Positions 21,001 to 36,000 of a DNA stretch of 64,000 nt are shown here, piece by piece (within the stretch, counting starts at the first letter, position 1; each line of letters begins with the position of its first letter). The stretch lies in the NCBI RefSeq assembly GCF_056746865.1, contig NZ_CM163382.1; one strand, given 5' to 3'. The position numbers were made by a program.

Positions 21001-24000
21001 GGACGCCGCCGGCATTTTCCGCCACATTGCCGCCAATCGAGCAGGCGATTTGTGAGGAAGGATCCGGCGCGTAATAGAGATTATGCGGCGCAACGGCCTG
21101 GGAGATCGCCAGGTTACGCACGCCCGGCTGCACGCGCGCGCGGCGACCAACGGGGTTAATGTCGAGGATCTCTTTAAAGCGCGCCATCACCAACAACACA
21201 CCTTTTTCCAGCGGCAGCGCGCCACCAGAAAGCCCGGTGCCTGCACCACGGGTCACCACCGGCACACGCAGGCGGTGGCAGACAGCCAGAATCGCCGTCA
21301 CCTGTTCCATCTGCTTAGGCAGAACAACCAGTAATGGACGCGTGCGATACGCGCTCAACCCGTCACACTCGTAAGGAATGATCTCCTCATCGGTATGCAG
21401 GATCTCAAGTCCAGGGACATGCTCACGCAGTGCCATCAGTACCGATGTGCGGTCGACATCGGGTAAAGCGCCATCAAGACGCTCTTCGTACAAGATGCTC
21501 ATGAGTAGGCTTCGCTTTGTTGTGTTGTGTGGCAGCTGATTTTTGCGCGCTGCTTCTGTGAACAGTTATTAAGCGGGCTTTTCGTTTTCGTCTATCTCTT
21601 TAGCTACCGGTCAGACCATTTTTTTTCCAGCTCTGTGACCTTGTCTTGGTTAACTCAATGTTAAATTGATGTAACATAATCACTTACGTGATGTGCGTGT
21701 TTTGCGAGTTAAGAACAGAAAAATTGGTCCTACCTGTGCACGAGGTCCGGGAATGAAAGATGAACGTCGCCCTATTTGCGAAGTGGTTGCAGAGAGTATC
21801 GAACGGTTAATTATCGACGGCGTACTGAAGGTCGGTCAGCCGCTTCCCTCGGAACGTCGACTGTGTGAAAAGCTCGGCTTCTCACGCTCCGCACTGCGTG
21901 AAGGGCTGACCGTGCTGCGCGGGCGCGGGATTATTGAAACGGCGCAGGGTCGCGATTCTCGTGTCGCACGGCTTAATCGGGTGCAGGACACCAGCCCGCT
22001 AATTCATCTGTTCAGCACGCAGCCGCGAACGCTGTACGATCTGCTCGACGTTCGCGCATTACTGGAGGGCGAATCGGCAAGGCTGGCGGCAACGCTGGGA
22101 ACGCAGGCTGATTTTGTTGTGATAACTCGCTGTTATGAAAAAATGCTCGCCGCCAGTGAGAATAACAAAGAGATTTCGCTGATCGAACATGCGCAGTTGG
22201 ATCACGCTTTCCATCTCGCCATTTGTCAGGCTTCTCACAATCAGGTGCTGGTGTTTACGCTGCAATCATTGACCGATCTGATGTTTAATTCAGTGTTTGC
22301 CAGCGTAAATAATCTCTACCATCGACCACAGCAAAAAAAGCAGATCGATCGCCAGCATGCGCGGATCTACAACGCGGTGTTGCAGCGGCTGCCGCACGTC
22401 GCCCAGCGCGCAGCACGCGATCATGTGCGGACCGTGAAAAAGAATCTCCACGATATCGAGCTGGAAGGCCACCATTTGATTCGCTCGGCGGTGCCGCTGG
22501 AGATGAACCTGAGTTAGCTGGTATTAAATTTGCTTTTCATACAATCGGTAACGCTTGTACGGCTCCGCCCCAATGCGTTCCAGCATGTTATTCATGCCTG
22601 TATTGGTTTCGAGGATCCATGACATCTCCAGCGCATCGATCTTCCGGCGGGCAAACGGATCGCGTAAGGCTTCAATCAATAACAGCGCAATCACCGGGCC
22701 GATGCGGCTGAACTGATACTCGTCGCGCACGCCCATCAGCGGTACTCGCGCAGTTCGCACACCGCTGACTTTCAAACGCCACAGCAATTTTGCCCAGCCG
22801 AAGGGAAAGAGCGATCCGTTCAGATCGGCAATCGCCTCGTTGATGTTCGGCAAGCCGACAATAAACGCGCAGGGTGCAGAATCAATCTCAGCGATATAGA
22901 TCATATCGTCCGGCACCAGATATTTAAGTTGATCGCCCATGGTCGCGAATTCATGTTCGGTAAACGGCACAAATCCCCAGTTGTGCTGCCAGCCAGAGTT
23001 GAAAATCTCACGCAGGATCTGCATCTCTTCGGCAAACCGCTGACGATTGATGCAGCGAATGGTCACCTTTTTGCGCACCTGATCCATCAGTTTTTTTAGC
23101 GCCGGAGAGAAAGTGAGATCGGTTCGCTGCATCCACCACGCCAGTAAATCAATGCCTTTGTGATAACCCAGTTGTTCAATATGCGCGGCATACCACGGTT
23201 TGCCGTGTGGCATCATCGCACAGGGTGGTGTGTCAAAACCTTCAATCAGTAATCCGCTTTCCTGATTGATATTCAGGCTGAAAGGACCGCTGATCTTACT
23301 TGCACCTTGTGACTTCAACCACGCTTCCGCTGCGCCAAACAACGCGGCAAAAACCTGCGGATCATCAATGGCGTCAATCATGCCGAAATGACCGGTATCT
23401 TTGCCGTAACGCTCGCGGTGCAAGGTATCTATTTGCGCGGTAATACGCCCAACTATCTGCCCCGCTTTTTTTGCCACCCACGCCTGCCAGATGATATGGT
23501 CCGTCCCCGGATTTTTCGCAGACAAATGCTCGTTGCGTTCAATGAATAAAGGGGGTATCCAGTTTGGATCGTCGGGATAAAGTGATGACGGAAAAGCGAT
23601 AAATGCCTTAAGGTCATTTTTATTAATTACTTTTTCAATTTTAATCATCAGCAGATCGCATTCCATAGTTCTGTTCTGTGGGTAACAAATAATTAACGGT
23701 GACAAACAGGTTGCAACAGCAACGAACGGCACCTTAATAATCAACCCAATGAATACAAACGACGAATAAATAGTATTTATTAATGATTACGATAAGGTCA
23801 GAGACTACACAGAAGCGCCACAATGCCTTTTGTCGATTTAAGGCGACCGGACAAGGCTTCTTCTTAATATATTCATAAATTAAATATCATTCACAATAAA
23901 AACAAAAAAACTCAAACTCATTATTTAAATCAATGTTCATTTTCACACTGATGAAAATACTATCTCATTTATCTTTTATGCCTATATAATCCACCGCATT

Positions 24001-33000: not shown

Positions 33001-36000
33001 ACTGGAGCCTAACCAGGCGCTATTGCGAATAATGGTGCGAAACGCGCCATCTGCAAACCAATGTTTGATGTTAAAACCCGCCAATTCAGCCTGACCTTAT
33101 CGTTGATAGTAAAAAGTATCCCGCCAGCCTTAAGTTAAACTTCGGCGGTCAGAAACGATGGCAACCAGAGAAACCGCCTTCTGTGCCTGTTCCAGCACTT
33201 CGCTGTAGGGCGCTCTGGAATCAATCTCAAGAATTTTTGTGCCGTTATAGCCAATCTTCGACATGACACCGATTTTGTCCTGCAGCTCGGCATAGTCATG
33301 GTCAGGCTTGCGGGAGATGGCAGTCTCAATATCAATGCCCAGGCGAATAATTAATTCCGGGCGATATTGCGCCATTTGTTGGTATAAACGCCGTTCGCGC
33401 TGCGCCAGAAACATGCTGATTTTCCCGGTCGCACGTTCGACGCCAATCCCCGGTCCATCATAATAAAAGCCCGAAATTTCAGCCTGCGGGAAGCGATCGC
33501 TGACCACCAGAACGCCACTTTGCGCCAGTCGCTGAACCTTGCGTAGATTCGCCATTCTTCGCAGCGAGAAGCAGTACATAATCACCGCCGCCCATAGCGC
33601 CGGAGATTTGGTTTTCATGCTTTGGGTTTTCGAGGATTTGGCCGCCAGTCGCCGTTCCAGCCAGACGCCAACCAACGGCAATCGTTTGATTTTGTCGCCG
33701 TCTTCGCCGGAGAGCAGCCCCAGATAGCGCCGCTCGGTTTGCCAGTGTTGTTGCAGCGATTTCACCAGGTCGGTGGTCAGTGTGGATTTACCGGTGCCAT
33801 CACACCCGACCACCGCAATCAGCCCCGGAATGTAGTTGGGCTGCGGCGCGGTTGTACTATTAACAGTTTGAGTTTGTAGTGCATCCATTCGTTAAATCAT
33901 CCCCTATCCATTTTGGTGATCAGGAAAGCGCGGCGTGAATTGCGCGTTGTGACGCTTGCAGAATTTCATCGGCGGGGTGTCGCCCATCCAGTTCAAGGAT
34001 CTTTGCGCCATTGAATGTCAGTTGCGGCGTAACGGCGATTTTTTCCTGTAACGCTGCCAGTTGGTGGTCAGGTTTACGCGCAAACGCGGTTTGTTCATCA
34101 ATGCCAAGACGAATCAACAATACGGGCAAATAAGATGCCATCCATTGGTACAGCTTCAGCTCGCGCTGCCTTAACATTTTTATCCAACCGTTACCGCCCG
34201 TGGTTTTTGCCAATTGCGGGCCATCAAAGCGAAACCCCGGCACTTCAACCTGCGGGTAGCGGTCGGTGATGAGCAGAAAGCCTTGCTGGCTTTTACACAA
34301 CATTTTGCGAAACTTGTACGCCCGCCAGCAGGAAAGCAGATAGATAACCAGTGCAGTAATATTGCCAGGCGGTGTTGAGGGCTTTTCGTGCACATGTGCC
34401 GCTTTACTTCGCAGATAACGCCCAAAAGGTGCGCCAATAACAGGGAGCTGTGAAATCCATTCGCCAATTCGCCCGGACGATTGCCCGAGATAAATGTGTT
34501 CTGTTGGCATTCTTGCTGCCAGTTCATTTACCAGGCTTGCCGTGAGGGTCGATTTACCTGAACCATCACATCCTACAATGGCAATAACACGCACTGGCGT
34601 GGAATTAATTATTGACATATTACGTTGATTCACGAAAAACCCGGCAGTAAATAATGTATTGAATATTACGTGGTCCGTGCTCAGAATATCCGTTCAACCT
34701 TATTGTGACAATGGTTAATTGTGACATTGACCTGAATTACGCTTTCATAAAAACATATTAACCAAATAAATATTTTTAATGGATATTTAAATTAAAGGAT
34801 ATATTCATGCAGTCAATAACACCTCCATTAATTGCCGTTATTGGTAGCGATGGTTCAGGCAAGTCAACGGTGTGTGAACATCTTATTACCGTTGTCGAAA
34901 AATATGGTGCTGCCGAAAGAGTTCATTTAGGAAAACAGGCCGGAAATGTCGGTCGTGCAGTGACAAAATTACCGTTGATGGGAAAATCCTTACATAAAAC
35001 AATTGAACGAAATCAGGTGAAAACAGCAAAAAAATTGCCTGGACCAGTTCCGGCGCTGGTAATTACAGCGTTTGTCGCCCGTCGCTTACTGCGCTTTCGT
35101 CATATGCTTGCCTGTCGTCGTCGCGGGTTAATTGTTCTAACCGACCGTTATCCTCAGGACCAAATTCCTGGCGCTTACGATGGTACGGTGTTCCCACCTA
35201 ACGTTGAAGGTGGTCGTTTTGTCTCATGGCTGGCAAGCCAGGAACGTAAAGCGTTTCACTGGATGGCGAGCCATAAGCCTGATCTGGTCATCAAACTCAA
35301 TGTTGACCTTGAAGTTGCCTGTGCACGTAAACCCGACCATAAACGGGAATCGCTGGCGAGGAAGATTGCCATAACGCCACAGTTAACCTTTGGTGGTGCA
35401 CAACTGGTTGATATCGATGCCAATCAGCCACTGGAACAGGTGTTGGTTGATGCAGAAAAAGCGATTACGGATTTTATGACCGCGCGTGGTTATCACTAGT
35501 CAAAAATGGAAATGCCCGATCGCCAGGACCGGGCATTTTCAGGAAGGTTAAATCAACTGCAATGCTATCCAGTACAGCCCACCAGAAAGAAAAATTGCCG
35601 CCGGTAAAGTAAATACCCACGCCATCAGGATGCTGGTTACCGTTTTACGCTGTAACCCACCGCCGTCCACCACCATCGTCCCTGCAACTGCAGACGAGAG
35701 GACGTGTGTTGTGGAGACGGGCATCCCAATATAACTGGCAAGACCGATAGACACTGCCGCCGTCATTTGTGCCGCCATGCCTTGCGCATACGTCATGCCG
35801 CGCTTACCAATCTTCTCACCGATGGTCATCGCTACACGACGCCAGCCAATCATGGTGCCAATGCCGAGCGCCAGTGCTACCGCCATGATGATCCACACCG
35901 GAGCGTACTCAATGGTGCTTAACATATCGCTGCGAAGTTTTTTCAGCAGGTTCTGGTCTTCTTTACTGACGCCTGGCAGTTTCGCTAGCTTCGCGGAGGT

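Follow-up and report, generated by a model that had tools for sequence, protein, structure and literature searches.

The window analysed here is a 64,000-nucleotide stretch of NCBI RefSeq assembly GCF_056746865.1, contig NZ_CM163382.1. An open reading frame (ORF) map of the window showed an interval of 13 genes (22524-35499) flanked by glcC and pitB. This interval is the Escherichia sphingolipid locus, an identity settled by the literature. All 13 ORFs are intact and the interval is 99.9% identical to that of an E. coli B derivative. The gene yghO (22524-23666, minus strand) encodes a homolog of the N-acyltransferase bCerS, also listed as 'aca'. It diverges from a plus-strand operon of four genes. 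These are aasR (24076-25764), encoding a fatty acyl-AMP ligase which loads a dedicated acyl carrier protein (ACP); cerR, also named epi (25761-26675), encoding an NAD(P)-dependent short-chain dehydrogenase/reductase (SDR) of the 3-keto group; acpR (26707-26955), encoding the dedicated ACP; and spt (26955-28127), encoding serine palmitoyltransferase (SPT). A minus-strand operon converges on this one. Its first gene is yghS (33920-34633), followed by the paralogous yghR (33130-33888), both encoding P-loop proteins with a thymidylate-kinase fold. Next are yghQ (31735-33084), encoding a flippase of the MOP superfamily, and a 274-amino-acid ORF (30911-31735), translationally coupled to yghQ and encoding a soluble all-helical protein with a putative CHAD-like fold. 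The run continues with a ytfJ-like gene (30339-30899), whose YtfJ-family product is predicted to be periplasmic, and ends with lptF2 (29238-30308), an LptF paralog, and lptG2 (28162-29241), an LptG paralog and predicted permease of a sphingolipid extractor. The third thymidylate-kinase-fold paralog, yghT (34807-35499, plus strand), diverges from yghS.

Gene spacing within the interval is tight. Overlaps of 4 nt were found for aasR/cerR and lptF2/lptG2 and of 1 nt for acpR/spt and yghQ/274-amino-acid ORF. Elsewhere in the minus-strand run neighboring genes are 11-45 nt apart, and lptF2 and lptG2 share this run with yghS, yghR and yghQ. The divergent control regions are AT-rich, with GC contents of 32.0% for the 409 bp between yghO and aasR (23667-24075) and 29.5% for the 173 bp between yghS and yghT (34634-34806), compared to 52.0% for the whole window. 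An earlier reading of the window made without database searches (the sequence-only reading) had described this gene order and strand pattern, with which the ORF map agrees exactly, along with tight gene overlaps and the two AT-rich regions, all of which were recovered. It had also placed a bidirectional terminator between the convergent operons. A GC-rich hairpin with a 16-bp stem containing 10 G-C pairs lies there (28130-28164), between the stops of spt and lptG2 and overlapping the lptG2 stop codon, but its T-tract is weak on both strands and the hairpin is kept as a candidate terminator. It was the sole standout in a terminator scan which found 21 matches against 16 expected, no more than chance.

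The synthesis genes carry the assignment. Spt scored 599 bits against the NCBIfam SPT equivalog NF047599 (cutoff 500) and has the pyridoxal phosphate-lysine motif TFSKS at residue 241. It also matched BioF, Kbl and CqsA-type alpha-oxoamine synthases with lower scores. AasR scored 878 bits against the fatty acyl-AMP ligase family NF006624 (cutoff 600). CerR contains the motifs GATGFIG and YAKSK and matched SDR/epimerase families, and AcpR matched ACP families, all below cutoff. No match to YghO was found in Pfam and NCBIfam searches. Compared with a Caulobacteraceae spt locus (L035), identities were 42% for YghO (375 amino acids), 43% for AasR, 34% for CerR, 39% for AcpR, 53% for Spt and 33% for YghQ. 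In all gammaproteobacterial loci examined acpR is directly upstream of spt and aasR is in the same operon. A ceramide gene set is therefore present, with an SPT-type alpha-oxoamine synthase, the acpR/aasR arrangement and homologs of bCerS and CerR. The sequence-only reading had described the plus-strand genes correctly as a ligase-reductase-ACP-synthase operon; what it missed is that the synthase is a serine palmitoyltransferase and that the expected product class is a sphingolipid.

The same operon has been studied at the bench. In Padilla-Gomez et al. 2022 (PMC9386255), ECD_02851-02854, corresponding to aasR/epi/acpR/spt, were cloned from E. coli BL21(DE3), with ECD_02852 listed as the reductase 'epi' and yghO/ECD_02850 as the acyl-CoA N-acyltransferase 'aca'. 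BL21 AcpR bears 4'-phosphopantetheine and is acylated in vivo by its cognate AasR, and AasR, AcpR and Spt together yielded 3-oxosphinganine in vivo (PMC9386255). Spt formed 3-oxosphinganine from serine and palmitoyl-AcpR both in vitro and in vivo, and preferred acyl-AcpR (PMC9386255).

Transport is represented by LptF2 and LptG2. LptG2 scored 309 bits against TIGR04408 (cutoff 240) and LptF2 318 bits against TIGR04407 (cutoff 230). Against solved structures both aligned end to end, with about 147 bits for LptG2 to LptG chains and 93-115 bits for LptF2 to LptF chains. The pair resembles the LptB2FG lipopolysaccharide (LPS) extractor in these family cutoffs and full-length alignments. It differs from LptB2FG in being divergent (93-150 bits), dispensable, situated in a sphingolipid locus and lacking a cognate LptB or LptC, as no ABC ATPase ORF and no LptC-like gene was found in 22524-35499. 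In every gammaproteobacterial locus with full flanks lptF2/lptG2 are adjacent to spt. They are thus permeases inside a sphingolipid locus and additional paralogs without their own LptB. Their loss from K-12 excludes a role as the essential LPS permeases and, judged from sequence, they are divergent, dispensable paralogs of LptF and LptG. The RefSeq/PGAP annotation labels them 'lptG' and 'lptF' (28162-30308), which is misleading in view of their loss from K-12. YghQ had a weak MOP flippase match in the family search, and a crude hydropathy scan showed six hydrophobic stretches in it, which fits a polytopic membrane protein. The YtfJ paralog scored 212 bits against TIGR01626 (cutoff 151) and has an N-terminal hydrophobic segment (residues 1-21); a PDB sequence search with it gave chance-level matches only.

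The closest characterised relative is the Caulobacter crescentus locus (CC_1152-CC_1168 / CCNA_01212-01226), which encodes Spt, AcpR, AasR, CerR, bCerS, CpgABC, LptF2/G2/C2 and the flippase CC_1166. LptF2, LptG2, LptC2 and the putative flippase CC_1166 have been described there (PMC11324152); the Caulobacteraceae homolog of this flippase is the protein to which YghQ is 33% identical. According to a 2026 preprint by Uchendu, Isom and Klein (bioRxiv 10.64898/2026.04.12.717747), Caulobacter lptF2/G2 are required for sphingolipid transport and could not be deleted while the anionic sphingolipid was made, and LptF2 and LptG2 form a complex which binds the single housekeeping LptB. The five ceramide genes, acpR directly upstream of spt, LptF/LptG paralogs, a MOP-type flippase and the absence of an LptB paralog are common to Caulobacter and E. 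coli, and protein identities between the E. coli and Caulobacteraceae loci were 34-53%. Caulobacter produces ceramide phosphoglycerates and glycosphingolipids. In E. coli the locus is without a CpgB-type kinase, CpgA/C, glycosyltransferases and LptC2, and has instead YghRST, the putative CHAD-fold protein and the YtfJ paralog. The UTI89 strain of E. coli has its sphingolipid operons depicted in Fig 2B of the same preprint, which also remarks on lptF2/G2 in gammaproteobacterial loci (10.64898/2026.04.12.717747). The UTI89 operons and ECD_02850-02854 of BL21(DE3) (PMC9386255) are the same locus as that in the window, with an identical order of yghO<->aasR-epi-acpR-spt. The sequence-only reading had proposed that the complete system escaped study in the model strain; this is true for K-12 only, as biochemical tests of the BL21 genes date from 2022 and the 2026 preprint shows the UTI89 locus with lptF2/G2. 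In the portions of these two accounts that were available, the five synthesis genes and lptF2/G2 are treated, and not yghQ, yghRST, the 274-amino-acid ORF, the YtfJ paralog, the shuffling of modules across genera or how often E. coli carries the locus.

Spt was used as query against one genome per GTDB species, which gave 56 loci, followed by tblastn of all 15 window proteins. Members of ten genera had every gene from yghO to yghT no more than 10 kb from spt, namely Escherichia, Pseudocitrobacter, Citrobacter, Hafnia, Sodalis, Serratia, Mangrovibacter, Pluralibacter, Pantoea and Rosenbergiella. The arrangement varied. In Sodalis, Serratia sp. M24T3 and Rosenbergiella, yghT<->yghS-yghR is placed upstream of yghO, with lptF2G2 on the far side of yghQ, and in Serratia proteamaculans, Mangrovibacter and Pantoea the entire downstream run is inverted. 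At least three module arrangements were present across Enterobacterales, and the glcC flank was found in Escherichia only. The units which moved and yet stayed together were yghO<->aasR-spt, lptF2-lptG2, the ytfJ-like gene with the 274-amino-acid gene and yghQ, and yghR-yghS<->yghT. The ytfJ-like gene was always beside the other two members of its unit in the loci compared. Linkage kept through such shuffling of modules argues for functional coupling more strongly than synteny alone would. The proposal of the sequence-only reading, a single system for biosynthesis and export, is upheld by the co-location of all 13 genes in ten Enterobacterales genera despite the reshuffling.

Two observations were made beside these loci. 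The phosphate transporter gene pitB (35548-37047 in the window) adjoins the locus in several genera (L007-L009, L012, L013, L017, L021), mostly on the yghT side and on the yghO side in Pluralibacter, and was not in the flanks of the Serratia, Sodalis, Pantoea, Mangrovibacter and Rosenbergiella loci. It is probably an ancestral neighbor and no part of the system, and its adjacency is worth recording given the kinase-like and CHAD-like genes. Serratia sp. M24T3 has, beside its full locus (L011), a second acpR-spt pair (L022, 9754-11167) whose Spt is 79% identical, with no other locus genes within 10 kb.

The three thymidylate-kinase-fold proteins were characterized further. YghR is 45% and YghT 36% identical to YghS, and the paralogs overall share 36-45% identity, with invariant motifs GxDGxGKST, DRxPQ and ARKPDH. 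An AlphaFold2 (AF2) model of YghT had a pLDDT of 84, and an insertion after strand 2 was conserved and modelled with low confidence. In Foldseek the top matches of YghT were thymidylate kinases (TM-score about 0.6, probability 1.0, 18-24% identity). A PDB sequence search with YghT gave chance-level matches only. Against the dTMP kinase family TIGR00041 the three proteins reached 24-32 bits (YghT 26 bits) and not the cutoff of 83.25, so that the RefSeq name 'dTMP kinase' for YghS and YghT (33920-35499) is an over-annotation. They resemble thymidylate and other nucleoside monophosphate kinases in the P-loop, a DR(Y/F) motif and the overall fold, and differ in the scores below cutoff, the insertion after strand 2, the ARKPDH motif and their association or fusion with flippases. 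The possibility that YghRST are the missing ABC ATPase of LptF2/G2 was rejected, because their fold is that of thymidylate kinases and they lack an ABC signature.

A family profile search of 1.84 billion representative proteins returned 3026 relatives, counted as clusters at 50% identity, with 283 at E <= 1e-30. Tandem fusions of the YghRST type were present (P0241, P0242). One protein (P0380) combined a MOP flippase, an NTP_transf_5-like domain and a YghRST-like domain, and another (P0329) a YghRST-type domain with a GT4 glycosyltransferase. Many relatives of about 500 amino acids (e.g., P0287) had an N-terminal domain with a GxxDxD nucleotidyltransferase-like motif, read by eye. All five informative contexts of distant members (L063, L067, L069, L070, L071) were polysaccharide loci of the Wzx/Wzy type with MOP flippases, GT4 glycosyltransferases, Wzy polymerases and no spt, and in each a Polysacc_synt flippase lay within three genes of the YghRST member; the contexts of P0334 and P0291 were on contigs too short to be included. 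The gene following a distant YghRST-like gene typically encodes a second small P-loop protein. The gene of about 250 amino acids 3' of distant members was not called a paralog, as its match to the family profile was weak. YghRST belong to a large thymidylate-kinase-fold family that recurs beside lipid flippases or fused with them.

The Pseudomonas and Stutzerimonas loci retain the five core genes and lptF2G2 and have no yghQ, 274-amino-acid gene or ytfJ-like gene. YghRST-like genes in the Pseudomonas sphingolipid loci are coupled to an MsbA-like exporter just downstream of spt. In Pseudomonas sp. LS-2 (L030, 510-16480) the end of the gene for this MsbA-like ABC exporter overlaps the first of two YghRST-like genes, and the locus further carries a CpgB/YegS-like lipid kinase, an IspD-like nucleotidyltransferase, a CptA phosphoethanolamine transferase and an unassigned 321-amino-acid ORF. 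Together with the polysaccharide contexts, this coupling points to a recurrent cassette of a lipid flippase and a YghRST-type P-loop protein, which the enterobacterial sphingolipid locus would have adopted.

The 274-amino-acid protein has no hydrophobic segment and its start overlaps the yghQ stop by 1 nt. It had 319 homologs, and among the 120 matches listed the named sources were nearly all Enterobacterales. When its profile was run against the Pseudomonas, Caulobacteraceae and polysaccharide loci, no relative was found. His, Arg and Lys are frequent among the invariant residues of the protein (KYxRARYKHLRF, FHDVRK, GDxHDxMV). By fold alone, the model suggests a CHAD fold of two four-helix bundles. 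CHAD domain proteins bind inorganic polyphosphate. The likeness to the CHAD proteins of Ricinus (6qv5), Streptomyces (PptA, 6rn5) and E. coli (YgiF, 5a61) lies in the conserved His/Arg/Lys-rich helices. It differs from them in having no Pfam CHAD match and no triphosphate tunnel metalloenzyme partner domain, and in the coupling of its gene to a flippase gene and not to polyphosphate metabolism.

These comparisons bear on whether the interval holds one system or two unrelated neighbors, namely a ceramide operon (yghO with aasR-spt, perhaps with lptF2G2) beside a flippase module (yghS-yghR-yghQ, the 274-amino-acid ORF, the ytfJ-like gene and yghT) serving a polysaccharide or lipid-linked glycan. 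The occurrence of distant YghRST members in spt-free Wzx/Wzy loci, the Pseudomonas sphingolipid loci which do without yghQ and its two partners, and the retention of yghRST and part of yghQ in K-12 without the rest would all suit such a division. Separate neighbors would not be expected to stay within 10 kb of spt through inversions and transpositions, as the yghQ/274-amino-acid/ytfJ module and yghRST do in every full-flank Enterobacterales locus. The sharing of one tight minus-strand run by lptF2G2 and yghS-yghR-yghQ in E. coli, the coupling of YghRST-like genes to an MsbA-like exporter next to spt in Pseudomonas, and the absence of any glycosyltransferase or polymerase from the E. coli interval also argue for one system, and two unrelated neighbors are considered improbable.

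Within E. coli, at least 80% of the interval was present in 4051 of 5426 complete genomes (approximately 75%), a part only in 770 and none of it in 605. The sequence-only reading had asked for a co-occurrence comparison of the two halves. They were nearly always found together, the biosynthesis operon in 4067 genomes and the segment from lptG2 to the 274-amino-acid ORF in 4103. In a K-12-type locus (strain CM5), blastn against the window showed 23627-32015 (8389 bp) to be replaced by a 1194-bp IS5. What is left is yghO, yghQ truncated at its 3' end, and yghRST; the deletion, from 23627 onward, takes in the left end of the AT-rich region between yghO and aasR, and lptG2 is absent. This IS5 junction was found in approximately 353 of the 5426 genomes. 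The locus comparison thus bears out the suggestion that K-12, with yghO, an IS5 copy and yghQRST, is a deletion derivative. In strain EC17CM13 (L059) the deletion is bounded by IS26 and joined to a pheV-associated integrase/relaxase island, and in LZHX12 (L060) the region from gspL to the 3' end of yghT is deleted, the glc operon included. The losses of the locus are independent events.

The same reading had called the interval an accessory island. Variable presence among strains agrees with that term, but tests for a genomic island showed neither atypical composition nor mobility genes. The GC content of the interval is 50.2% compared to 52.0% for the window, and no integrase or transposase ORF or other mobility gene was found inside it. 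The glcC-pitB site is the same in three other Escherichia species-level lineages (L003-L005). The ratio of nonsynonymous to synonymous substitution rates (dN/dS) against these lineages was 0.03-0.15 for all 13 genes, compared to 0.015-0.027 for glcC and pitB. Against Pseudocitrobacter and Hafnia it was 0.04-0.18, and for pitB across genera up to 0.085. The ordinary GC content, the absence of mobility genes, the shared site and the dN/dS values together indicate an ancestral, functional and repeatedly lost locus and not a recent island.

The losses could also be read as neutral, with the locus a silent, decaying relic that has no present function in E. coli. The independent IS5, IS26 and gspL-to-yghT deletions and the approximately 25% of complete genomes without an intact interval would agree with this, as would the finding of the 2022 study that BL21(DE3), a carrier of the native locus, had no SPT activity of its own, empty-vector extracts forming no 3-oxosphinganine (PMC9386255). 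A relic would not be expected to have 13 of 13 ORFs intact, dN/dS ratios this low both within Escherichia and against Pseudocitrobacter and Hafnia, or genes which on cloning encode active enzymes, as those of BL21 do (PMC9386255), and this explanation is highly unlikely. The sequence-only reading had suggested possible silencing by nucleoid proteins. In K-12, yghS belongs to the H-NS regulon with counter-silencing by SlyA; it is in two H-NS binding datasets and increased 3.1-fold on SlyA overexpression (PMC5797941). These data and the lack of native SPT activity in BL21 fit silencing. The divergent AT-rich regions may keep the locus silent in the laboratory, probably through H-NS with counter-silencing of the SlyA/LeuO type.

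Very little credence is given to the view that the Spt-like enzyme makes a non-sphingoid compound in vivo (an alpha-hydroxyketone-type signal or another amino-lipid) which the transporters export, as suggested by the lower-scoring BioF, Kbl and CqsA-type matches and by the relaxed substrate specificity ascribed to rhodobacterial SPTs in a section heading of PMC9386255, since Spt is above the SPT equivalog cutoff, its E. coli form yields 3-oxosphinganine from serine and palmitoyl-AcpR (PMC9386255), and the complete bCerS/CerR set for ceramide is present.

It is likely that in Escherichia and other Enterobacterales the locus makes a ceramide-type sphingolipid and delivers it to the outer membrane. 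In the proposed pathway AasR would adenylate a fatty acid and load it onto AcpR, and Spt would condense acyl-AcpR with serine to give 3-oxosphinganine, as has been demonstrated for the BL21 proteins. By homology to the Caulobacter pathway, YghO would N-acylate the intermediate and CerR would reduce it to dihydroceramide. YghQ would flip the lipid to the periplasmic leaflet. By analogy with Caulobacter LptF2/G2, LptF2 and LptG2 would then extract it, together with the housekeeping LptB, into the Lpt route to the outer membrane; the housekeeping LptB is taken to power the pair because no ATPase is encoded in the interval. The roles of the remaining genes are more speculative. YghR, YghS and YghT may work with the flippase and would most likely phosphorylate the lipid or head group on the cytoplasmic face, a best guess which is held with low confidence. 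The putative CHAD-fold protein might bind the resulting anionic group or the phosphate donor, and the YtfJ paralog, being periplasmic by prediction, might act after flipping. A more specific proposal is tentative and on balance doubtful. In it, YghR/S/T would act with YghQ and the putative CHAD-fold protein as a phosphorylation module coupled to the flippase, by which E. coli ceramide would receive a novel anionic head group based on phosphate ahead of its export, and YghRST would more broadly be an undescribed and widespread class of thymidylate-kinase-fold enzymes partnering lipid flippases.

Several results weigh against a ceramide-type sphingolipid pathway of this form. A search of the accessible literature found no report of wild E. 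coli making ceramide or sphingolipid. Neither a CpgB-type ceramide kinase nor a glycosyltransferase or phosphoethanolamine transferase is encoded in the locus, and the head-group chemistry is therefore a guess. A scan for consensus sigma-70 promoters found 13 matches compared to 16 expected, which is chance level, and any promoter claim was dropped. Co-occurrence within E. coli largely reflects vertical linkage. The YghRST family is found mostly in Wzx/Wzy loci without spt, so its substrate may not be a sphingolipid. The idea that YghRST are a plain stand-in for the ceramide kinase CpgB was weakened by the Pseudomonas loci, which carry both a CpgB-like kinase and YghRST-like proteins; this argues against YghRST being simply the ceramide kinase. 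For the 274-amino-acid protein, Pfam gave no match with it or 23 orthologs, CHAD (PF05235) included, NCBIfam gave nothing, and PDB sequence searches with the single sequence and a profile were at chance level only.

The central claim of the sequence-only reading is right but was already known, as the core of the system is published. The residual novelty is the accessory genes and the identity of the native lipid. Textbooks list E. coli lipids as glycerophospholipids and LPS only. An intact sphingolipid synthesis and export locus under purifying selection is nevertheless present in roughly three quarters of complete E. coli genomes and in many other Enterobacterales, and has been lost from K-12. 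Bacterial sphingolipids affect the outer-membrane barrier, sensitivity to cationic peptides and host immune signalling, so the timing and product of the E. coli locus bear on commensalism, pathogenesis and antibiotic permeability. The question is now sharper and concerns the role of six accessory genes, four of which are long-standing uncharacterized y-genes of K-12 (yghQ in truncated form, yghR, yghS and yghT).

Two features of the glc neighborhood outside the interval were also observed. In the window glcE (18951-20003) is an intact ORF of 350 amino acids; it is annotated as frameshifted in strain SCU-313, whose match to the interval is 100%. In the closest genome, the region corresponding to window positions 1-18000 holds an intact type II secretion beta system (gspC-H onward) with sslE and pppA beside the glc operon. 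K-12 presumably keeps only remnants of this system. The type II secretion segment is another variable part of the glc neighborhood.

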